Origin: an uncultured Pseudomonadales bacterium
GTDB taxonomy: Bacteria; Pseudomonadota; Gammaproteobacteria; Pseudomonadales; UBA7434
Length of the DNA: 64,000 nt
NCBI GenBank assembly: GCA_964504585.1
Contig: CAZDEW010000004.1
Span: forward strand, 4,052-68,051
Direction of reading: 5' to 3'
Made by a program: the position numbers and the translations under genes. The notes below the pieces were generated by a model. That model was given only the letters and a program-made list of their open reading frames with translations. It did not search any database and had not been told where the DNA came from. Below are positions 9,242-38,448 of the stretch, piece after piece (position 1 is the first letter of the stretch; every line of letters begins with the position of its first letter).

Positions 9242-11482
9242 TTGAACTATCTCAAAGCAGCGATCGATGCCCCTTTAAGGCGCACTTTTGATTACTTGCC
9301 CGCTGAAGGCCTCTCGGTGAGCGACTACCCGGTGGGCAGTCGGGTGCTGGTTCCCTTTGGAAAAAGAGAAGTTATCGGAATCATCGTCGACTGGACAGCA
9401 AGCAGCTCCGTCGACGCCTCGATGCTCAAGCGTGCTGGCGCGCCAACTGACGATCTGCCCCTACTCGACGATGAGCTTTTGCGCTTCATGTCATGGGTCA
9501 GCAATTATTACCATCACCCACTTGGCAACACAATTTTCACGCTCCTGCCGAGCTACTTTTGCAAAGTCGCTGATGCAGAGCCCTACCTCGAGCAGGCCGC
9601 AGCGATTTCGATCAAAGGCAAAGGTCTACCCGAAGGTGCCCTCAATAACGCGCCCAAACAACAGAAGCTGCTCAACACCCTGCGTGAGGCTAGCGGGGCC
9701 ATCAGTTTCAGCGCGCTCAAAACGGCAGGTTTTAGTCGCGCTCTGATCAAGTCGCTGCATGAGAAATCGCTGATAGAAACCAAAGTCATTAGCGTTACTC
9801 CAAAGAACTGTAAAAGCTTACACCGTGGAAGCGCTGCAACTCCTGCATTAACTCTGTCGGGAGAGCAGTCAATAGCGCTCGAAACCTGTCTCGGTCGAGA
9901 AGATAAAGGGTTTGGTGCGACACTTCTCGACGGCATTACCGGCAGCGGCAAAACCGAGATCTACCTGCAAGCCGCCGCCAACATGCTGGCGCAGTCAAAA
10001 CAAATTCTCGTGCTTGTACCCGAAATATCACTGACCCCTCAAACACTGCGCCGCTTTACCGAGCGTTTTGATTGCCTCATCGCAGTCATGCACTCTGGTT
10101 TGAATGACCGAGAGCGGGCAGCAGCCTGGCACGCAATGAAACGCGGCGAAGCCTCCATTCTGCTCGGTACTCGATCCGCGATCGCAGTGCCCATGGCTAA
10201 TCCAGGCTTAATCGTAGTCGATGAAGAGCATGACCTGTCATATAAGCAGCAGGACAGCCTGCGCTATTCGGCACGCGATCTTGCAGTTGCCAGAGCACAG
10301 CAACTGCAAATCCCCGTGATTCTGGGCTCGGCCACCCCATCGCTTGAGAGCCGGTTCAACGCTGCCACAGGTAAATATCAGCGCGTTCTGCTGACGCAAA
10401 AAACCGGCAAAGCCACTGCCTCTCAGCTCACATTAATCGATGCCAGAAAAAAGGCGCTGACAGCTGGATTTACTGACGATGCGATCAGCGCGCTGCAAAA
10501 TACCATTAGCAGAGAAAAGCAGGCCCTGGTTTTCATTAACCGGCGCGGCTTTGCCCCACAAATACTTTGCCACGACTGCGGCTGGTCCTGCCGCTGCACC
10601 AGCTGTGATGCGAGCATGACATACCACAAGCTGGCAAGAGAGCTGCGCTGCCATCACTGCGACGCCAGATCGGCGCTCCCTGCGACATGTCCGAGCTGTC
10701 AGTCAAAAAACCTGCGCGCCGTCGGCGAAGGTACCCAGCGTTGCGAGGAAGCATTAAAAACGCTGTTCGGTGATGATGTTGTGCTACGTGTAGATCGCGA
10801 CTCAATGAGCAATACAGGCGCTCTGACCCAGACGCTGGAAAGCGTTCAGCGTGGCCGCCCCTGTATCTTGATTGGCACTCAGATGCTCGCCAAAGGTCAC
10901 CACTTCCCGGCACTTGAAACAGTCGTTATGCTGAATGTCGATCAGGGCCTTTACGGCGCCGATTTCCGCGATATTGAGCGAACATTGCAACTGCTCACAC
11001 AGGTCGCGGGCCGCGCAGGTCGTGAATCTGACAGTGGCCAGGTTCTAGTGCAAACCCATATGCCGGATCACCCGGTACTGCAGGCATGGAGAACACAAAG
11101 CTACTACGATACCGGTGCCCTCATACTCGATGAGCGCAGGGTTCGCCAACTGCCACCGTTCTATCACCTCGCCACATTCGGAGCAGACAGTCCGAAGGCG
11201 CAGGCCGCGCAGGCTTTTCTGAAGCAGGTCGCTCAGATTCTGGGAAAACATGCTTACAGGGAGAAGGCAGCAGACAACCAGCCGAAGGTGAAAATTATTG
11301 GGCCCTTCTCAGCGCTGATGGAGAAACTTGCGGGGCGACACCGCGCGGCATTGCTGGTAAAAGCAGAGAAACGAGGCGACCTGCATGACATACTATCCGC
11401 CAGCCTTCCAGAGATCGAACAGATACCAAAAAAACAGGGATTGCGCTGGCACGTGGATATTGATCCACAAATCATGCTTTGA
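9242..11482 (+). CDS. priA: primosomal replication protein N' (PriA helicase)
   Basis: 746 aa with Walker A GITGSGKTEIY, a DEEH box (VVDEEHD) and Cys-rich zinc motifs (CHDCGWSCRCTSCDA..CHHCD..CPSC). The start is TTG. Confidence 0.95.
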   Translation: MNYLKAAIDAPLRRTFDYLPAEGLSVSDYPVGSRVLVPFGKREVIGIIVDWTASSSVDASMLKRAGAPTDDLPLLDDELLRFMSWVSNYYHHPLGNTIFTLLPSYFCKVADAEPYLEQAAAISIKGKGLPEGALNNAPKQQKLLNTLREASGAISFSALKTAGFSRALIKSLHEKSLIETKVISVTPKNCKSLHRGSAATPALTLSGEQSIALETCLGREDKGFGATLLDGITGSGKTEIYLQAAANMLAQSKQILVLVPEISLTPQTLRRFTERFDCLIAVMHSGLNDRERAAAWHAMKRGEASILLGTRSAIAVPMANPGLIVVDEEHDLSYKQQDSLRYSARDLAVARAQQLQIPVILGSATPSLESRFNAATGKYQRVLLTQKTGKATASQLTLIDARKKALTAGFTDDAISALQNTISREKQALVFINRRGFAPQILCHDCGWSCRCTSCDASMTYHKLARELRCHHCDARSALPATCPSCQSKNLRAVGEGTQRCEEALKTLFGDDVVLRVDRDSMSNTGALTQTLESVQRGRPCILIGTQMLAKGHHFPALETVVMLNVDQGLYGADFRDIERTLQLLTQVAGRAGRESDSGQVLVQTHMPDHPVLQAWRTQSYYDTGALILDERRVRQLPPFYHLATFGADSPKAQAAQAFLKQVAQILGKHAYREKAADNQPKVKIIGPFSALMEKLAGRHRAALLVKAEKRGDLHDILSASLPEIEQIPKKQGLRWHVDIDPQIML

Positions 11483-30417: not shown

Positions 30418-31719
30418 TTATCTCGGCGGCAACAGTTTAAGGATCTGCGAGATTGACATGATCTCGCTATTGGCCTCGTGTGAACGCGTGTGCTCAAGTA
30501 TGCTCTCGGCTACGCTGACCATGGCGGGATAGGCCGCGCGCAACAGGTGATTCGCATAAATGACAATTGATACTCCCGCCTCACACAATTCGGCCTCAGT
30601 TACAGTGTTATAGCTAGAGGGTACTGCTATTAGCGGCTGCGTGTAGCCGCGCTTGCGGAATTCAGCGGCAAACTCCAGAACTTCCGCTGGATCCGATTTC
30701 GCACTGTGTATCATGACCCCATCAGCCCCGGCTTCAATGTAAGCCTCTGCGCGCTGCATGGCATCGTCTTGGCCTTTGTCGAGGATAAGGCTTTCGATCC
30801 GAGCAAAGAACATGAAATCGTGCCCTACCTGCGCACGCTTTGCAGCGCGAATTTTGTCGCAGAAGTCCTCTATAGAGGCCTGCTCCTGCTTTACTGTTGT
30901 GCCAAACAAAGAGTTTCGCTTGGGACCAACTTTATCCTCAAGTACAACAGCCGATACACCATGGCTCTCCAATTCGTAAACCAGAAACGGTATGTTGTCT
31001 ATGCTTCCGCCCGAATCGCCGTCATAAATAATTGGAATAGCAGTAACTTCACACATATCCCGAATCACTGACAATCTTGCACCAGTGTCTACAACTTCGA
31101 TATCGGGACGCCCCCGTGAAGTCGCGTCGGTGAGTGAGCTGCACCATAGCGCATCGAAGGCGCGCACTTCTTTGCCAACGGTATGTTTTGCAGTTCCAGC
31201 AACCAGAGCGCTTAGCCCGCTGTGTGCCTCGAGAACCCTTACAGTATCTTTCGCATCGAGCAGCCGGCGAAGAAGTCCGCGGCGAAAGTCCGCGGTAATA
31301 CCACGCTCGGAAATACTCTCAATCAGCTGCGTTGAGGAAACACCCGCTGTGTAGGGCACATCTACGACCTGACCGCCCCACTTACTGATAACGTCAATAA
31401 CGTTACGACGTGTATCAGCTTGCACCCCTTCCTTCCAGTCATCGCCGTGCACGACGAAATCAGGCTTCAGACTCTCGAGGTTTGCTGTGTAATCGAGCGT
31501 CTCTTGTGGGATGACCTGCGCTACTCCCTTGATGTTCTCGACGACCGTCTTCCGCTCCTCATAGGGCATAAGCGGCAACCGCTTGTACTGGGCAATGGCA
31601 CGGTCGGTAAGCAAGCCAACCGTCAGCTCACCCAGATCACGAGCATGTTTAATGATATTAATGTGCCCGTGATGCAGTACATCCGCACAAACACCCGCGT
31701 ATACCTTTGGTTTTGTCAT
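30418..31719 (-). CDS. bifunctional cytidylyltransferase / phosphoenolpyruvate mutase (Fom1-like fusion)
   Basis: The N-terminal ~135 aa is TagD/ECT-like ([41 protein letters not shown]). The C-terminal domain is a PEP mutase with the diagnostic [10 protein letters not shown] block (30910-30939). I prefer the ATG at 31719, preceded by GGAGAAACT, over the track start at 31770. Confidence 0.85.
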
Positions 31720-32211
31720 AGTTTCTCCGAAGATTTTCCCTGAGCCCGATGGGCACTGAAGAGCAAACACCTGTAAAAACGATTATCTATCTGTGGGATC
31801 GAGCCAATACTGAGACTCGATTGGAAAGCGAGGGTTAACTCGTGGCATATATGCGTTAAGACGGCAGTCGCCTGATGCAACCACTACCCAGCTGAATATC
31901 TTTTAATCAGTAAGATTTTATGCCGTGGAAGTAAGCGTTTATCGAGCCAGCCCCACAGGTCAACATGGTGTGACGAAGCCGCGAATGCTACTCGATATAA
32001 AAAACCATAACAATTGTAGATCGGCTATAAAAATCCACGGTTTAGGCAGCTATATTGCACTGTGAAGAATTGCTTATCGGAGCAGCATTTGCGTGCATTT
32101 TGTAAAGCGGCAAAGAGACCGTAAGCAGGACCAAAACACTTTGGATATTTAGCGGATAACGTCGCTGGCAAGTCAGCTAATTGTGGAAGTAAACTGGAGA
32201 GAGGTCGGCCA

Positions 32212-34815
32212 TCAGAAAAAGATAGCTTCTTTTAGAAAATCTTCTAACTCGCCATAACCGAGCAGCGCATCAAGCACTCGGTGTCCCACCTCGCCCTTAC
32301 TCGAAGAAATGGGGCGTATTTCCCCATCAGTAACCTTGGCAACCAACTGCGCGAACTTTGCGTCACGCTTGTCGTCTCTGGCGTGACTCAATACTATTTC
32401 CGCACGACCACCACGCACTTTTTCGATAAGTAAAAGAGCAGCTTTTAGCAAAGCTTTTGACTTCTGTTTTTTAAAGCGTGGGAAACGACCGCCAATAGAC
32501 AAAACTCGTCGGACCTTAAAACGCAGTCCGGACACGATTGCCATATAAGCGCCAGCGCTACTTCCAATAGTTCTCAGCTCTGCATGCTCTTCTAAAATTT
32601 TTTGTTTACCAAGCCATCGAATAACCTGTCGTTCACTGGATCCTAACGAAGGAACACCGTCGGAATAGTTCTCGCCAAGTGGCTCCGCTATGATTAAGAA
32701 ATTGAACCTGGACGCGTCAGCGCACTGAAGCAGGGCGAAATTCGGGATAATCAATCGTCGTCGCCCACGCATCGCAAAACAAATCACCAGAACTTTTTTG
32801 GAAGAGTCGCCACCACCATCAAACAAGGTCACCGTTGGCGCAATCTTTCTGGGCTGATAACGCTGGAAGCTCTCCTCGCCAACGCTCATCAACACTGAGG
32901 AAACACTGGTGAACCATAAATCCAGCGCATTTTGAAACTTCTCGTTTTGCACATCGACAAGATCTTTACGAGAGTGCTCATGCGCAAGAAAAGCTAGCTG
33001 CTCAGGTGCCAACCGATGCTCAAAAGTTTGCAAAGCTTTATTGAGCTGGCCTATTGAGCTGCATAGCCTGAATACCCTTCTGAAAGTTTTTACCAGCTGA
33101 GTATAGTGATCATCTAGACGTAACCGCTCTTTAAATCCTTCAGGGAGAATTTCACCGCCAACCCTGCCGGTTTCTGCACCCGCTGAAATAGTCGCCACCA
33201 ACTGACTTAACAGCCTATAATCAGCAAACTCGCCGGGATCTATCACCACATCAAACTGCATTTCAACAAGAATAAGCAGCTCCATCTGCGTCATAGAATC
33301 CATACCAAGTGTTCGCAGTTTTACATCTTCTTCACCCGCCTCAAATGCATCTAGACTGTCGCCTAGGAAGTCCATGACTGACGGCAAACCTCTGATAGCC
33401 TCACACAGTCTCGTGCGGACATCACCGAACCGCCCGCTAATAGCCAAAACCTCTTGCCGGTTAACCTTACCTGTCTCCCCTCTCGGCACCTTGTTAACCA
33501 GAATGAACTGCTTGGGGGATCGAGCACCAGCACGTGCGCTAACGAACCTTTGGATTCGCGAGAGTTTTGGCGGACTCGCATATTGATCAAACGCTAATAT
33601 TGCAATCGGAACGTCACCGTGAATACGCGATTTTCTGGGTACGACGGCCGCATCAGCCACGCCAGGATACTCCATGATGAGTGACTCAAGCTCCTGTGGA
33701 TAAATGTTCATACTGTTGAACACAAACATGTCATCCGAGCGGCCAAGAATAAATAGACTACCGGTCTGGTCGATTCTTGCGATATCCCCTGTACAATACC
33801 AACCATCTTTCACACTCTTTTGATAAACCTCCTCAGCACCCAAATAGCCTTCGAACATGCCTTCACCACGCACGAATAAAACCCCGGGCTGGTCAGGCTC
33901 GACCACAACGCCAGCAGCATCTCGGCACTCAAGCTGAAGACCATTCAAAGCGCGACCAACGGACTCGGACTCAACAAACTCGGAAGTGTGCGCAAATGCG
34001 ATTGCTCCCGTCTCGGTAGTTCCGTATCCGAAGCGCAGATTCGGCGTTAGGGAATCTGTTAAAAGTTTTCTCGTCTCGGGTGATACATGCGAACCACCGA
34101 TTTTCAAACCTATACTTTGTAATCGATGAGCATCAGCATGACGAACCAGAGATCGCGCCTGGTACTCAGATACATGAAGCGTCTCTACATTCAAGCTAAT
34201 GCACTGATCCAGCAACTCATTACTGTCAAGAAAAACATTAGTAGCTCCACGGGCCATCACATAAAACCTGTGCCGCTTTGAAAAATTATGCTCAACGGAT
34301 GCGATACAAGCGAATCTTTCGTGCTCGTTATCGACATGCCTATGTGCCTGAGCGATCAGCCCAGCGCTACTGTGAACAACAATCTTCGGCTTTCCCGAGG
34401 TGCCGGACGTAGAAAACAGTAGTTGTGCGTTGCCGAGATCGCCGACATGCGTATTATCCGGAACAGTCCCAGAGAAACCCGAGGCCAACTGTTCCACTAA
34501 AAAAAAACGAGTGCCAGCCGACTCGAACACTGAAGTATCAAAGGCCATCTCAAAAGTAGGAATCGTAAAAGTTGTCGCCTCCAATCGCATACCAGCTAAA
34601 CAAATAATTAAGTGTTCGATGTCGTTGGCGCAGCGAATACCCATGACTGCCGCGGAGGTAACACCCAGAGACAATAATTCATTGGCCTCTGCCTCGACCA
34701 TTGCAGCAAGCTCCGAGTAAGAAATCGATCTCTCAACTGAAACCAGAGCATCCCGGTCGGGGGTAGACAGAGCCTGTTGATACAATAATGAAACGATATT
34801 TTTAGGGCGTTGCAT
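32212..34815 (-). CDS. tridomain adenylation - carrier (T/PCP) - alpha/beta-hydrolase-like enzyme
   Basis: 867 aa. Adenylation motifs are LLFSTSGTSGKPKIVVHS, GYGTTETG, WYCTGDIARIDQTGSLFILGRSDDM and PRGETGKVNRQE. The carrier motif LGMDSM has its Ser codon at 33295-33297. The C-terminal ~300 aa carries a nucleophile elbow GSSAG (Ser codon 32557-32559), then candidate Asp (HARDD) and His (EVGHRV). Confidence 0.8.
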   Translation of the reverse strand: MQRPKNIVSLLYQQALSTPDRDALVSVERSISYSELAAMVEAEANELLSLGVTSAAVMGIRCANDIEHLIICLAGMRLEATTFTIPTFEMAFDTSVFESAGTRFFLVEQLASGFSGTVPDNTHVGDLGNAQLLFSTSGTSGKPKIVVHSSAGLIAQAHRHVDNEHERFACIASVEHNFSKRHRFYVMARGATNVFLDSNELLDQCISLNVETLHVSEYQARSLVRHADAHRLQSIGLKIGGSHVSPETRKLLTDSLTPNLRFGYGTTETGAIAFAHTSEFVESESVGRALNGLQLECRDAAGVVVEPDQPGVLFVRGEGMFEGYLGAEEVYQKSVKDGWYCTGDIARIDQTGSLFILGRSDDMFVFNSMNIYPQELESLIMEYPGVADAAVVPRKSRIHGDVPIAILAFDQYASPPKLSRIQRFVSARAGARSPKQFILVNKVPRGETGKVNRQEVLAISGRFGDVRTRLCEAIRGLPSVMDFLGDSLDAFEAGEEDVKLRTLGMDSMTQMELLILVEMQFDVVIDPGEFADYRLLSQLVATISAGAETGRVGGEILPEGFKERLRLDDHYTQLVKTFRRVFRLCSSIGQLNKALQTFEHRLAPEQLAFLAHEHSRKDLVDVQNEKFQNALDLWFTSVSSVLMSVGEESFQRYQPRKIAPTVTLFDGGGDSSKKVLVICFAMRGRRRLIIPNFALLQCADASRFNFLIIAEPLGENYSDGVPSLGSSERQVIRWLGKQKILEEHAELRTIGSSAGAYMAIVSGLRFKVRRVLSIGGRFPRFKKQKSKALLKAALLLIEKVRGGRAEIVLSHARDDKRDAKFAQLVAKVTDGEIRPISSSKGEVGHRVLDALLGYGELEDFLKEAIFF

Positions 34816-34954
34816 CTGTTTTAGCTATAAGCCTAAATTTATAGATGGGCAATAGGTTTATGGGAAGTGAGGCTTCCCGCATGACTAGTTCCCGGCTTAA
34901 GTGATGTGTGAGTGCAGTCGTCACGCGAAAATCACGCCAGAGTAGTTACAAAAA

Positions 34955-36160
34955 TCACCGCGGAATCTTTTTTGAGTATCTTAGATACGTAGAAAACAAT
35001 CTCGCTATACGCTGCTTAAAACTGGTACGAAGATAAAGCCACCACCAAGGCAGATGTCTAACTGATTGGTAACGTTCTTCAATTAAGTTCGCCTGCAAAC
35101 TCAAAGATTCGCCCCGACTATCAAACACAGCATAATCTAGCAGCTTGCGACGATCCTGCTGCTTGTCATCGGTCGCCAAAGCTTGTCGTACAAAAGGTAG
35201 CAAGTCCTCGGAATGATCGATTACAGTCCCCGCCTGCCATACATACGTATTATCAGTAATCTGATTACCGGCCTTGTACCGTCCCGGCGCAGGGTTGGCG
35301 AAAAGAATCGGACGGTCAAAATGCAACCATTCGTAGCATACCGATGAAATGTCGGAGATCATGGCATCGCTTGCTGCCATATAGGGTGTGATGTCATCAT
35401 CAATCACAACCTTCACGTTTGCTTCATAACCCAGCTCTTCTATTAAATCTTTGACCCGATCATAGATGTCGATTTTGTCCGAAACCAACTTGCTATGAAA
35501 CTTCATAATTACATTGTAGTGACTGCCAAGCTGTCTCACGATTTCAAGAGACCAAAGTTGGATCGAGCTTTCACCATAGAGTGAACGCTCACCTAGCTTC
35601 ATACTAGTCACCGAGCTATCCCAAGTTGGCGCGTATAGAATGACCTTCCTATCCTCATCGAACAAACTTACTGGTGTAAGGCTTCCCTTATAAAATTCAT
35701 CAAATTTGGGATAACCTACTAGCTTCCAGCTATTGATATACGGCAACGTACCTGCAAGCTTTGCTTTATCTACAGCTTTCTGCCCGGGGAACAGGACAAG
35801 GTCGTAACAGGTGAGTCGAGCTGACTCTATATATCGCTTGTCTGACAAGCCCCCATGAAAAACCTGAACTGCTACACCACAGTAAAGAAGATGAAAACTT
35901 GGATAAACAATCAACCTCAATCTCAACTTAAACGCCAGCTTCCTTGCCTCTGCTCTATTTTCTACTAGCCGTATGTCCAGGCAATAATCCGAATATTTTT
36001 CATTAGCGCGGGCAAAAATACTGGTGTTATCGGTAATGATAACCCCACCAAGGCGTGGATATAGCCTGATAACTGGAGGCAGGTGTTGGATGTTCGAAGA
36101 CAAGTAGTAGCCAATTTTCTTATCCATACTTGCACTGGCCGACACTTCAGCATTCATCAT
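34955..36160 (-). CDS. TagB/TagF-family CDP-alcohol phosphotransferase (glycerophosphotransferase-like)
   Basis: 401 aa. ILYAPTWDSS and MAASDAMISDISSVCYEWLHFDRPILF match the Glyphos_transf pattern (YAPT[WF]R and D.LI.D.SS..F.....P). Confidence 0.7.
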   Translation of the reverse strand: MMNAEVSASASMDKKIGYYLSSNIQHLPPVIRLYPRLGGVIITDNTSIFARANEKYSDYCLDIRLVENRAEARKLAFKLRLRLIVYPSFHLLYCGVAVQVFHGGLSDKRYIESARLTCYDLVLFPGQKAVDKAKLAGTLPYINSWKLVGYPKFDEFYKGSLTPVSLFDEDRKVILYAPTWDSSVTSMKLGERSLYGESSIQLWSLEIVRQLGSHYNVIMKFHSKLVSDKIDIYDRVKDLIEELGYEANVKVVIDDDITPYMAASDAMISDISSVCYEWLHFDRPILFANPAPGRYKAGNQITDNTYVWQAGTVIDHSEDLLPFVRQALATDDKQQDRRKLLDYAVFDSRGESLSLQANLIEERYQSVRHLPWWWLYLRTSFKQRIARLFSTYLRYSKKIPR

Positions 36161-36248
36161 AAAAACCGAATTATTCTTTTACCCGACACAGCAGGGTGAT
36201 TGTATGTTGGAACTTGGAGTGTTGAAGGGCTGACTTGCCCGGCTCAGA

Positions 36249-37115
36249 CTAGCCACTGATCAGATTCAACTTCTCTCTTATTATTGTCGAACTAACGCTT
36301 GGCGTGTAGTCAAAGTAGATTACTTCACAACTAGTTTTTGGGTACTTGCCTTTCCAGTCGGAGCCTACGGATATCGCATCGATACCGAACTTATCTACCG
36401 CTGCTTGTTTATTTTTGTCGTGTTGCGGCACGACTTTATCCACATATGATATCTGCTCTACGATTGCTGCGCGCTCCTCATAGGGAATGACAGGTAGACG
36501 CCCTTTATCTTTTAAAATCAGATCGTCAACTGAAACGCCCACTATCAGTTCGTGACAAAGCTCTTTAGTGCGTCGCAAAATATTTAAATGGCCGTGATGG
36601 AATATGTCGAAACAACCCGTAGTGTACATCCTGTTGAATCGCTTATTCGGCTGCTGCTGCACGGCTACTGCGGCAAACTCCTTCTTCAGGACAGCCTTCA
36701 TCGCAGCGTGTTCTTCATCGCTCATCTCCAGCGACGTGGATAAATCACAGGGGCCCGGCCAACTGCGATCGAAAAATTCACGGCCTTGCAGCTTTTGAGC
36801 AGCACTATGACGCGGAAAGATATGGAAATGAACGTGCGGATCAACCATCATAAGCATGAGATAATTCGTCTTCTCATAACCCAATCTGCCCTTAAAAACC
36901 GCCTCGATAATCTTTACCAAATTTCCCTGTTCAATAACTGCGTCGGGGGAAATCTGGTCATACGCCGTGACATTTTCTTTGCAAACGAGAACAATAGAAC
37001 CGAGCGTCACCTGTTTGGGTCGATACAAAACCTCCCAAAAACGAGATGAAAAAATCGTCGATTCAGGAAAACCGAATTTGTCTAATGTGTCCTGGACATC
37101 CATAAAAGTGCTCAA
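36249..37115 (-). CDS. HIT-domain / TagD-like cytidylyltransferase fusion protein
   Basis: 288 aa. The N-terminal HIT histidine triad is PHVHFHIFPR (36825-36839). The C-terminal half is colinear with glycerol-3-phosphate cytidylyltransferase: TTGCFDIFHHGHLNILRR (HxGH at 36588-36599), VGSDWKGKY, TPSVSSTIIRE. Confidence 0.75.
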   Translation of the reverse strand: MSTFMDVQDTLDKFGFPESTIFSSRFWEVLYRPKQVTLGSIVLVCKENVTAYDQISPDAVIEQGNLVKIIEAVFKGRLGYEKTNYLMLMMVDPHVHFHIFPRHSAAQKLQGREFFDRSWPGPCDLSTSLEMSDEEHAAMKAVLKKEFAAVAVQQQPNKRFNRMYTTGCFDIFHHGHLNILRRTKELCHELIVGVSVDDLILKDKGRLPVIPYEERAAIVEQISYVDKVVPQHDKNKQAAVDKFGIDAISVGSDWKGKYPKTSCEVIYFDYTPSVSSTIIREKLNLISG

Positions 37116-37326
37116 GCAAACCCCACGCTGCGAAGCGGAATTTTACAATATAATGGCGAAATCCAACAAGCAAAGCCCTGCCCCACACGCCCGCTACAAG
37201 CAGCTTTGGTAACTTTTGCGGTGTTCAACGGAAGTTGCAGGATCAACTTCCCTATTGAGAGCCATGCCCGTAAAGTCCGTGCGCAGAGCATCACTTCAGA
37301 ACCGTATTCCTGATGCAAAGGCAATC

Positions 37327-38448
37327 ATGCAAACTCCGATAACCGATCAACCCCTTACCATCTATCTGGACACACCCAATCTCTACTATCTCCCTCAGTA
37401 CGAGCCGTTGATCAATGAAGCAATCCGAAGGGGCGCCAACTATAAAGTTGTCCTGTATCAAGACAAAAATCAGCTCAACACTCAGCGATCATGTCTCGCG
37501 AAGCATGCTGACAAGCTGATTTTAGTGGATGATGCAGAACAGGCTTCAAAGCTTTACGCGAAAGACAGACCTAACTGGGTGTTTTTTGGCAATAGCTTTG
37601 ATTATCTGGAGCTACTCCACGCGGACACGCATACCGCACAGCTAGGGCACGGCATCGGCCCAAAGCCAAGCTACTATCATAAATCTCGCACGGCGATGAC
37701 CGTCCGATTTATCGAAGGCGCACTAAGGCTCTCAACCATCCGCAAGCTCTATCCTGAACAAAACTTTGTTCAGGTTGGCTTTTGTAAGCTGGATCCCTTA
37801 TTCAACAGCAAGGCGGAAATGCAGCCACCTGAAAATTACAAGTTGCCGAAGGGCAGAACCACTTTACTTTATGCGCCAACTTTCAAACCGAGTTCGCTTG
37901 AGTGCTTTCCCGATAACTGGCCAGAGCACTTCGAAGAAACCAATATCTTGGTCAAGCCGCATCACTTTACTTATGAGAGAAAGCGCTATGAAAAGCAGCG
38001 CAGGAAGCTGGAAAAATGGTCTCGCTTTCCGAACGTCCACATTGCCAGCAAAGACGCCCTATCCTTGTTGCCGTACATGAATATTGCGGATCTGATGATT
38101 AGCGATGCCTCATCCGCAATTTTCGAATTTGCAGCATTAGACAAGCCTATCGTGCTGTGTAATTTCTTTAAGCTTCCATGGCACTATCGAGGTCCATTTA
38201 AATATCGTTATAACCGACGCTTCGTACAGGACGCTGTAGCCTATGAATCGCTTGCGCCGTTCGCCAGGAATTTTCAGGAGATGCACCGCCTAGTCGGCGA
38301 AGAACTAAAAGCACCCGAACGATATGCGCCGGCGAGACAGGCGTACACGCGAGATCATGTTGGAGACACCGACGGCAGAGCATCTGCCCGGATCCTCGAT
38401 TATATTGAGAACTACTCGGTAAACTCAGCTTCAGATCGAGCGAGTTGA
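37327..38448 (+). CDS. second TagB/TagF-family CDP-alcohol phosphotransferase
   Basis: LLYAPTFKPSS and MNIADLMISDASSAIFEFAALDKPIVLC. The start is uncertain: the track gives 37216, with ATGs at 37264 and 37327, and I use 37327 (MQTPITDQ). The 3' end overlaps the convergent GT9 gene by 18 nt. Confidence 0.68.
   Translation: MQTPITDQPLTIYLDTPNLYYLPQYEPLINEAIRRGANYKVVLYQDKNQLNTQRSCLAKHADKLILVDDAEQASKLYAKDRPNWVFFGNSFDYLELLHADTHTAQLGHGIGPKPSYYHKSRTAMTVRFIEGALRLSTIRKLYPEQNFVQVGFCKLDPLFNSKAEMQPPENYKLPKGRTTLLYAPTFKPSSLECFPDNWPEHFEETNILVKPHHFTYERKRYEKQRRKLEKWSRFPNVHIASKDALSLLPYMNIADLMISDASSAIFEFAALDKPIVLCNFFKLPWHYRGPFKYRYNRRFVQDAVAYESLAPFARNFQEMHRLVGEELKAPERYAPARQAYTRDHVGDTDGRASARILDYIENYSVNSASDRAS

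Follow-up and report, generated by a model that had tools for sequence, protein, structure and literature searches.

A HIT-fold domain joined to a TagD-type cytidylyltransferase, and the recurrence of its relatives beside CDP-alcohol enzymes

The fusion gene and its surroundings

The window analyzed here is a stretch of 64,000 nucleotides from an uncultured Pseudomonadales bacterium. On its reverse strand, a single gene encodes a HIT-fold domain joined to a TagD-type cytidylyltransferase domain, and two genes carrying the Pfam domain Glyphos_transf flank it. The features of the locus are as follows, with amino acids numbered from the first residue of the fusion protein.

36249..37103, reverse strand: fusion gene, HIT-cytidylyltransferase, 284 aa; ATG at 37103, stop codon at 36249-36251
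36654..37103, reverse strand: HIT-fold domain, aa 1-150 (PDB profile match, VIA-align, Pfam HIT in relatives, ESM Atlas)
36810..36842, reverse strand: HIT active-site motif D88-P-H-V-H92-F-H94-I-F-P-R98 (sequence and homologue alignments)
36252..36638, reverse strand: TagD-like cytidylyltransferase domain, aa 156-284 (Pfam PF01467, alignment to TagD 1coz, phmmer)
36588..36599, reverse strand: HxGH nucleotide-binding motif, H169-H-G-H172 (read from the sequence)
37104..37215, no strand: divergent intergenic region between the fusion gene and its TagF-like partner, 112 bp
37216..38448, forward strand: TagF-like glycerophosphotransferase (Pfam Glyphos_transf, E 8e-21), divergent from the fusion gene
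34955..36160, reverse strand: second TagF-like gene (Pfam Glyphos_transf, E 8e-22), 88 bp downstream of the fusion gene

The open reading frame 36249..37115 (reverse strand) is present, and the list of open reading frames places its start at a TTG (37115). Initiation at the ATG at 37103 yields a protein that begins MDVQDTLDKF. Homologues start at the same position, and the fusion protein is therefore most likely 284 aa long. Among the 120 matches listed, fusion homologues span 95-100% of the query and are 51-90% identical to it. The predicted structure of the fusion (AlphaFold/AF2) has a pLDDT of 90.6 and a pTM of 0.64, a value that leaves it uncertain how the domains are placed relative to each other in the model. 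A fusion of HIT and TagD-like domains had been proposed in a sequence-only reading of this DNA, and is borne out by the family profile, the predicted fold, Pfam/TIGR matches and structure alignments.

A homologue of the divergent TagF-like gene adjoins the fusion in 22 of 22 informative loci and is its sole constant neighbor. These partners share 45-52% identity with the window copy (36% in the Oleiphilus locus L021), and the two genes are arranged divergently, convergently or co-directionally depending on the locus. A promoter scan of 37104..37215 finds no sigma-70-like match inside this region. The second TagF-like gene probably forms one operon with the fusion gene. It lies outside the conserved module, having a close homologue (54% identity) in one of 24 loci, again that of Oleiphilus. 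An A-T-hydrolase gene adjacent in the window is not conserved either, with one weak partial match among the 24 fusion loci.

The GC content is 0.45-0.48 across 32-38 kb of the window, compared with 0.50-0.54 in the flanks, and the full fusion is absent from the 18 congeners examined. Both observations point to an accessory module, and the two genes (fusion and TagF-like) were probably acquired horizontally into the lipopolysaccharide (LPS) core locus of the source genome. Glycerol phosphate in the LPS core of Shewanella is mentioned in neither of two papers (PMC3210612 and PMC6357163). The module adjoins an unrelated hydroxyethylphosphonate operon, whose genes (Fom1-like CTase-PEP mutase, Ppd, Fe-ADH and LicD) lie 4.5 kb from the fusion gene. 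The Fom1-like gene (30418-31770) is the other cytidylyltransferase of the region, confirming the earlier observation that there are two.

The TagD-like C-terminal domain

The C-terminal domain matches Pfam CTP_transf_like (PF01467) over aa 160-277 (E 2e-18) and contains the segments CFDIFHHGHLNILRR, GSDWKGKY and SVSSTIIRE, all of which had been picked out from the sequence as signs of a TagD relative. It is colinear with the whole chain of TagD/TarD: phmmer aligns it end to end with the Bacillus subtilis (1coz) and Staphylococcus aureus (2b7l) enzymes (E ~1e-22), and VIA-align superposes its model on 1coz with a Z of 19.2 and an rmsd of 1.6 Å over 123 residues at 36% identity. The GxDW motif is kept, as is HxGH, with H169, G171 and H172 invariant in 39 homologues. 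The equivalent of TagD K44 is the invariant K200. As in teichoic-acid loci, the gene adjoins members of the TagF family.

The domain differs from TagD in several respects. YTPSVSST aligns with the RTEGISTT of TagD, such that the T and the C-terminal SST are retained while an invariant Tyr stands in place of R113; R202 occupies the position of K46. It is moreover fused to a 150-aa HIT domain, and its host is Gram-negative, with the gene in an LPS core locus. The score against TIGR01518 (glycerol-3-P cytidylyltransferase) is 92.7 bits (E 1.8e-26), under the equivalog cut-off of 165.4 bits, which makes the domain a TagD relative and not a certified equivalog. Its substrate could be an alcohol phosphate other than glycerol-3-phosphate.

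The N-terminal HIT domain

Against Pfam HIT (PF01230), the window copy scores 15.5 bits over its full length and 17.3 bits when the N-terminal domain is taken alone (E 0.008-0.03), below the gathering threshold of 21.5 bits. Searches with this domain as a single sequence (Pfam, NCBIfam and phmmer against the PDB) return HIT matches that are all sub-threshold, so that its assignment required a family profile and the fold. Pfam HIT is matched at E<=0.01 by 15 of 20 family members (best 8.5e-8), and a profile built from the 20 N-terminal domains matches the HIT structure 2oik with an E of 7.7e-9 against the PDB. VIA-align places the model of the domain on five HIT structures with overlaps of 126-135 residues: 3i4s (Z 15.2), 3i24 (Z 15.1), 3ohe (Z 14.5), 2oik (Z 14.1) and 3ano, which is Rv2613c (Z 14.1). 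Foldseek gives TM scores of 0.61-0.78, normalized to target length, and the ESM Atlas neighbors are HIT family clusters. The assignment to HIT thus misses the Pfam threshold for the window copy and is restored by the family profile and the fold. A helix (aa 129-150) ends the HIT fold and leads into the C-terminal domain.

The signature PHVHFHIFPR reported from the sequence occupies aa 89-98 (36810-36839); the interval first given for it, 36825-36839, spans only P-H-V-H-F. The window copy carries a full triad, H90-V-H92-F-H94-I-F. The first of the three histidines is not conserved: most members have lost it, and position 90 holds A, E, D, I, Y or H. D88, V91, H92, H94, P97 and R98 are invariant in the fused relatives; the same residues are invariant in the stand-alone relatives, apart from V91, which is nearly so (90% or more). 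Across 20 fused and 40 stand-alone relatives, H92, H94, N80, D88, Q31 and D112 are invariant. The nucleophile position (H92), expected from the HIT signature, is thereby constant family-wide.

The best profile and structural matches are small structural-genomics HIT proteins (2oik Mfla_2506, 3ohe Maqu_1709, 3nrd SMc02904, 3i24 and 3i4s), which share the motif context P-H-V-H-W-H-V-I-P-R with the domain. They are stand-alone proteins that keep all three histidines and have 15-19% identity to it. Since these solved proteins are themselves without known function, the matches assign none to the N-terminal domain.

Distribution of the fusion

Of 185,579 species genomes, about 23 encode the fusion, most of them from marine Gammaproteobacteria and Bacteroidales, and at least 120 metagenomic protein clusters carry it. 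The architecture, described as unusual in the sequence-only reading, is hence uncommon but recurrent, and no paper on a HIT-TagD fusion was found in the literature. A split form is present in a Clostridiaceae polysaccharide operon (L027), where the two halves are adjacent genes (9953-10405 and 10409-10873). Its HIT reading frame scores exactly 21.5 bits against Pfam HIT, and two other proteins, P0124 and P0126, reach 25.8 and 28.0 bits. In a quick maximum-likelihood tree of weak support, the fused N-terminal domains fall into two clusters, 15 gammaproteobacterial and 4 from Bacteroidota, a topology compatible with a single fusion event as well as with more than one.

In close homologues of the C-terminal domain from Flavobacteriaceae, the HIT domain is replaced by an unrelated N-extension of 80-88 aa, into which a BLASTP alignment ran on. 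A degenerate HIT remnant was considered for this extension and rejected: hhalign of 38 flavobacterial N-extensions against the HIT-domain alignment gives a probability of 0.35% and an E of 0.17, no better than a reversed control.

Stand-alone relatives and their gene neighborhoods

The N-terminal domain belongs to a large HIT subfamily, mostly stand-alone, with the motif x-V-H-x-H-x-x-P-R-Y. An hmmsearch recovers 794 representatives at E<=1e-10, mostly stand-alone proteins of 140-153 aa. In a metagenomic sample of 41 loci of 3 kb or more, with neighbors called by BLAST clusters only, at least 17 have a gene for a CDP-alcohol phosphatidyltransferase, an NTP_transferase/NTP_transf_3 or a TagD-like protein near the HIT gene. 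Over half of the stand-alone loci have no recognized CDP-alcohol enzyme, and many of the contigs are short. Among 400 sampled genomes of the phylum there are six strong matches to the subfamily, and all six have such a gene within 6 kb; by chance, 1.5% of random positions have one nearby, as estimated in one genome, the window's own. The HIT genes accompany complete activate-and-transfer cassettes of different enzyme folds, and the subfamily repeatedly adjoins four different kinds of CDP-alcohol enzyme. What is new here is this HIT subfamily and its repeated association with CDP-alcohol enzymes, an association found in no paper. The general idea that the HIT part handles CMP/CDP conjugates, put forward from the sequence, gains support from these gene contexts.

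Teichoic acids, capsules, LPS decorations, phospholipid head groups and compatible solutes are products of CDP-alcohol pathways, which are usually described as two steps, catalyzed by a cytidylyltransferase and then a phosphotransferase. The recurrence of a HIT domain in fused, split and adjacent form suggests an overlooked third activity in editing, pool control or nucleotidyl exchange.

A proposed role in CDP-alcohol metabolism

The best reading, in which our confidence is a little short of even, is that the protein is a CDP-glycerol-type synthase for the neighboring TagF enzymes with a built-in HIT enzyme acting on the CMP-phosphate bond of CDP-alcohols. With its two domains, the fusion would then serve a CDP-alcohol pathway by which the cell surface is decorated. 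In a first step, strongly supported by the likeness to TagD, the C-terminal domain would form CDP-glycerol from CTP and either glycerol-3-phosphate or a close analogue of this alcohol phosphate. In a second step, supported by conserved adjacency, the TagF-like phosphotransferase, here together with the second TagF-like enzyme, would consume this donor and put glycerol-phosphate-type units on the LPS core or another envelope glycan, freeing CMP. For the third step, we infer that the N-terminal domain is catalytically competent and belongs to a distinct HIT subfamily specialized in CDP-alcohol pathways. His92 would attack the alpha (CMP) phosphorus of the CDP-alcohol to form a CMP-histidine intermediate, and the most likely outcome would be hydrolysis to CMP and the alcohol phosphate. 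This would serve as editing or pool control opposing the synthase. Without regulation, joining such a hydrolase to the enzyme that makes its substrate would seem futile.

That the two halves are functionally coupled is indicated by the fusion in about 23 species and by the split adjacent pair in Clostridiaceae. As the window copy scores under both the Pfam HIT and TIGR01518 cut-offs, the exact substrate and activity of the fusion are not assured.

In a broader proposal, which we hold with more doubt than conviction, the x-V-H-x-H-x-x-P-R-Y class may be an unrecognized third component of CDP-alcohol pathways next to the activation and the transfer of the head group, either a proofreading hydrolase or a CMP-exchange enzyme. 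Across many phyla, it would work with systems of the TagD/TagF, NTP-transferase and CDP-alcohol phosphatidyltransferase types. A CMP-exchange variant would make donors that are out of reach of direct cytidylylation. If true, several hundred clusters labeled "HIT family protein" would gain a function, and a conserved two-gene surface-decoration module moving between marine bacteria would be explained.

Alternative roles for the HIT domain

An unlikely alternative is a GalT-like exchange or phosphorolysis, whereby the HIT domain would move CMP from CDP-glycerol onto a different phospho- or phosphono-acceptor, or onto inorganic phosphate. This would yield a second activated donor, one that cytidylyltransferases do not make directly, for use by a downstream transferase. 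The presence of the HIT gene with complete activate-and-transfer cassettes fits such an integral pathway step better than housekeeping. Some HIT-superfamily members are indeed transferases or phosphorylases, among them the structural neighbor Rv2613c, an Ap4A phosphorylase with a full HxHxH that can use phosphate in place of water. This protein (3ano) shares the HIT fold over 126 residues, but at 13% identity, and differs in its adenine dinucleotide substrate and its tetrameric assembly with an N-terminal extension. The P-x-V-H-x-H context also resembles the N-P-H-P-H of GalT. However, the third motif position is a His, as in hydrolases, where GalT and Apa1/2 have a Gln; the domain is a single small HIT unit without the duplicated GalT architecture; and the fusion has no conserved association with a pathway that could provide a second acceptor.

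The HIT domain could instead be a nucleotide-binding regulatory or dimerization module for the cytidylyltransferase, sensing for example CMP, CTP or CDP-glycerol. HIT proteins and TagD are both homodimers, most members have lost the first triad histidine, and the different flavobacterial extension indicates that the N-terminal position tolerates other modules. This role is nonetheless unlikely. H92, H94, N80 and D88 stay invariant whether the domain is fused or free, at sequence identities of about 35-50%, as is typical of an active enzyme, and most copies of the domain are free proteins.

It is quite improbable that the domain is a generic Hint/Fhit-type housekeeping hydrolase (of Ap4A or AMP-amidates) and its fusion incidental. 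Its fold is that of small HIT hydrolases, and some stand-alone members are labeled "Ap4A HIT family hydrolase" in the sources. Against this stand the fusion, the split pair and the adjacency to four kinds of CDP-alcohol enzyme over the 1.5% background, as well as a rare and patchy distribution (6 of 400 genomes) unlike that of HinT.

The FomD-like recycling or proofreading of CMP-phosphonate donors (CMP-HEP or CMP-AEP) proposed in the sequence-only reading draws on the nearby phosphonate operon and is very improbable, as tblastn finds homologues of LicD, Fe-ADH and Ppd in 0 of 24 fusion loci, the CTase-PEP mutase query matches these loci only via its cytidylyltransferase domain and detects no PEP-mutase homologue, and the fusion partner is of the TagD and not the phosphonate type; conservation thus lends the idea no support, in contrast to the TagF-like gene adjacent in every informative locus. 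A stand-alone relative in two genomes of one genus (G189 and G212) lies in an operon of a class-V aminotransferase, an NTP_transferase and the HIT gene that seemingly resembles AEP-transaminase/PntC pairs. The G189 locus (L178) has no PEP mutase or Ppd homologue within 8 kb on each side, and the G212 contig (L179), at only 5.5 kb, is uninformative on phosphonate genes.

Precedents for the proposed chemistry

Hydrolysis of a CDP-alcohol, as preferred here, has counterparts elsewhere. Cdh, a CDP-diacylglycerol pyrophosphatase of the HIT clan, and FomD, a CMP-phosphonate hydrolase of unrelated fold, break a conjugate of CMP with a phosphate or a phosphonate, which is the type of reaction proposed for the N-terminal domain. 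The likeness does not imply family membership, and neither protein is among the listed sequence or structural matches of the domain. A precedent for pairing a synthase with a pyrophosphatase is NadM-Nudix, in which NMN adenylyltransferase is fused to ADP-ribose pyrophosphatase. Both fusions combine a nucleotidyltransferase of the HxGH superfamily with a hydrolase, a putative one in the HIT fusion, of nucleoside-diphosphate-X compounds. They differ in that NadM-Nudix has a Nudix and not a HIT hydrolase fold, with non-homologous hydrolase parts, and acts on adenine compounds in NAD metabolism.

The fusion protein and its C-terminal domain

The fusion gene encodes an N-terminal domain (aa 1-150) and a C-terminal domain (aa 156-284) that are both folded and retain intact catalytic signatures.

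36249-37115, minus strand: fusion ORF as listed, start codon TTG
36588-36602, minus strand: FHHGH, sequence of the C-terminal domain

An ATG at 37103, four codons after the TTG, opens MDVQDTLDKF... and coincides with the start of every aligned homologue; the protein was therefore taken as 284 aa. Each string quoted for it in the sequence-only reading is present in the translated ORF. PHVHFHIFPR occupies aa 89-98 (36810-36839), and the interval originally assigned to it spans only its first five residues.

Residues 160-277 match Pfam CTP_transf_like (E 2e-18), and TagD of S. aureus and B. subtilis align with aa 156-284 over their full length (phmmer, E ~1e-22). The top NCBIfam match is glycerol-3-phosphate cytidylyltransferase, at 92.7 bits far below the 165.4-bit equivalog cut-off. 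In the AlphaFold model of the fusion protein (pLDDT 90.6, pTM 0.64), the C-domain superposes on TagD 1coz with Z 19.2 and an rmsd of 1.6 Å over 123 residues at 36% identity; the second-best structural match is the Fom1 cytidylyltransferase domain (Z 16.6). The HxGH motif is invariant among homologues. TagD K44 corresponds to K200 in the alignment, whereas K46 is replaced by R202, RTEGISTT reads YTPSVSST, and an invariant Tyr of the family stands where TagD has R113. Taken together, profile, alignment, fold and motif evidence show that the C-domain is a TagD relative that very probably makes a CDP-alcohol, with CDP-glycerol as the first candidate product.

Among stand-alone proteins, the nearest relatives of the C-domain (60-69% identity) are found at L023:9839-10480, L038:9989-10627 and some 40 more Flavobacteriaceae loci (L025-L068). 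They carry a conserved N-terminal extension of 80-88 aa in which no similarity to HIT could be detected (hhalign probability 0.35%), and a LicD-like gene adjoins them. L023 additionally contains a TagF-like gene, as well as an ORF of ~226 aa that by eye resembles LicC-type nucleotidyltransferases.

The N-terminal HIT domain

Assignment of the N-domain to the HIT family, proposed from the signature motif, falls short of the threshold with the window's copy alone, which scores 15.5-17.3 bits against a Pfam threshold of 21.5 and has only marginal PDB matches; the family profile and the fold do bear it out. Of 20 N-domains excised from related loci, 15 match Pfam HIT at E<=0.01 (best 8.5e-8), and a profile of all 20 matches the HIT protein 2oik (E 7.7e-9) as well as 1y23, Fhit and others. 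Over 126-135 residues, the N-domain model aligns at Z 14-15 with the HIT structures 3i4s, 3i24, 3ohe, 2oik and 3nrd, and likewise with the Ap4A phosphorylase Rv2613c.

The window's copy has the complete triad H-V-H-F-H-I-F. Its first histidine is not a family trait, this position being A, E, D, I, Y or H among relatives. D88, H92, H94, P97, R98, W23, Q31, N80 and D112 are invariant in fused and free relatives alike, while V91 and R28 are invariant in fused forms and nearly so (90% or more) in free ones. H92 corresponds in position to the nucleophile of Hint and Fhit. This conservation pattern fits an active enzyme rather than a relic.

Distribution of the fusion

A protein search with the fusion protein returned 1106 matches, the best 120 of which align over 95-100% of the query with 51-57% identity, one reaching 90%. 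The listed homologues are named at source only as 'adenylyltransferase/cytidyltransferase family protein' or 'glycerol-3-phosphate cytidylyltransferase'. The fusion is found in about 23 of 185,579 genomes (one per species), which belong to Shewanella (12), Alteromonas, Pseudoalteromonas, Kangiellaceae, Psychromonas, Oleiphilus and, within Bacteroidales, Carboxylicivirga and Labilibaculum. A tree of the N-domains has poor resolution. The same pair of domains also occurs split. In a Clostridiaceae MAG (L027:9953-10873), a 150-aa HIT ORF, exactly at the Pfam threshold, and a 154-aa cytidylyltransferase ORF are neighbours separated by a stop codon and a 3-nt gap, inside a polysaccharide operon and adjoining pyruvyl transferase and epimerase genes; this pair represents the fusion in split form.

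No full fusion was found in 18 congeneric genomes, and GC content is 0.45-0.48 over 32000-38000 versus 0.50-0.54 in the flanks (msbA, hldE, waaA region). The gene is therefore accessory in this lineage and probably acquired, and both observations are consistent with this stretch of the LPS locus having been gained horizontally.

A conserved two-gene module

Two TagF-like genes flank the fusion.

37216-38448, plus strand: TagF-like partner (Glyphos_transf)
34955-36160, minus strand: second TagF-like gene

The window's neighbours were compared by tblastn with 24 fusion loci, and all ORFs there were clustered. The only family travelling with the fusion comprises homologues of the TagF-like partner (45-52% identity; 36% in the Oleiphilus locus L021). 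Adjacency is obligate, holding in 22/22 informative loci, mostly in divergent orientation as in the window, convergent in Bacteroidales and co-directional in Psychromonas and Oleiphilus. Thus, the inherited unit is a two-gene module of fusion and TagF-like partner. For the second TagF-like gene, a close homologue (54% identity) exists in just one of the 24 loci, L021; the gene is therefore a lineage-specific addition to this module. In the window, Shewanella and Psychromonas, the pair is surrounded by waaA, kdkA and a GT9 heptosyltransferase gene, an LPS core locus.

The A-T-hydrolase gene beside the fusion is not conserved across the 24 loci. Recycling or proofreading of CMP-phosphonate donors, a role first suggested for the fusion, gains no support from conservation: homologues of LicD, Fe-ADH, Ppd and the PEP-mutase domain, encoded by the window's phosphonate operon, were found by tblastn in 0/24 fusion loci.

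Stand-alone relatives and their neighbours

Searching 1.84 billion representatives with the N-domain profile (hmmsearch) gave 1577 proteins at E<=1e-3, of which 794 reach E<=1e-10. The best 150 are mostly stand-alone proteins of 140-153 aa that share the invariant residues of the fused N-domains; the ~285-aa fusion appears in only a few clusters. Partners in metagenome loci, many of them short, were identified by clustering and Pfam annotation of neighbours. A TagD-like gene is near the HIT relative in only 4/80 loci. The most frequent partners are a CDP-alcohol phosphatidyltransferase directly upstream on the same strand (14 loci) and nearby NTP_transferase or NTP_transf_3 nucleotidyltransferases (13 loci). 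Of 41 loci at least 3 kb long, 17 or more contain one of these partners. The subfamily is rare, with six strong matches among 400 evenly sampled genomes of the phylum, all six within 6 kb of a CDP-alcohol/nucleotidyltransferase-type gene.

Contexts of the six strong matches (genes in order)
1 genome: fusion and TagF-like gene
2 genomes: class-V aminotransferase, NTP_transferase, HIT, desaturase-like gene
1 genome: CDP-alcohol phosphatidyltransferase, HIT, an unnamed family
2 genomes: nucleotidyltransferase 3-5 kb from the HIT gene

As a rough control, the window's 3.4-Mb genome has only 8 ORFs that match the partner-family profiles, 5 of them inside this locus, and only 1.5% of randomly chosen positions have such a match within 6 kb. 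Partner-gene enrichment is large, as a rough figure from a one-genome control with neighbours assigned by BLAST cluster.

Possible functions

The C-domain would supply a CDP-glycerol-type donor to the TagF-like enzyme or enzymes, which in turn may decorate the LPS core or another envelope glycan. Core glycerol phosphate is not mentioned in PMC3210612 or PMC6357163, on marine and Shewanella LPS. One step further, the HIT domain might act through His92 on the CMP-phosphate bond of a CDP-alcohol. The simplest outcome would be hydrolysis, for editing or pool control, because the third His, which HIT hydrolases typically have, is kept in the motif. The strongest competing reading is CMP exchange or phosphorolysis, since the HIT gene is found together with complete activate-and-transfer cassettes. 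A domain that only regulates or dimerises, or generic Ap4A or AMP-amidate housekeeping, is less likely given the conservation pattern and genomic contexts.

Full-text literature searches found no paper on a HIT-cytidylyltransferase architecture or a HIT/CDP-alcohol association. As each of the two domain families is already well known, the fusion does not amount to a new kind of system; its interest lies in a recurrent, unexplained HIT partner of CDP-alcohol pathways.

Related cassettes and architectures

In two genomes of one genus (G189, G212), the aminotransferase, NTP_transferase, stand-alone HIT and fatty-acid-desaturase-like genes form a conserved operon (L178:6795-10406, L179:1606-5195) that may serve to activate a head group or a phosphonate. 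PEP mutase was not found in L178 within 8 kb on each side; L179 is only a 5.5-kb contig. A three-gene cassette recurs at L102:3830-6589, L136:3911-6452 and L180:6921-9501. Its first gene encodes ~380 aa, with an unassigned ~190-aa N-terminal part and a C-terminal CDP-alcohol phosphatidyltransferase domain; the HIT relative and a ~340-aa family without a Pfam match follow, and some copies have a convergent NTP_transferase. The HIT subfamily also forms the C-terminus of P0154 (333 aa) and P0127 (431 aa). One of these has a ~290-aa N-terminal part without a Pfam match; the other looks eukaryotic, with a low-complexity region and a RanBP-type zinc finger preceding HIT.
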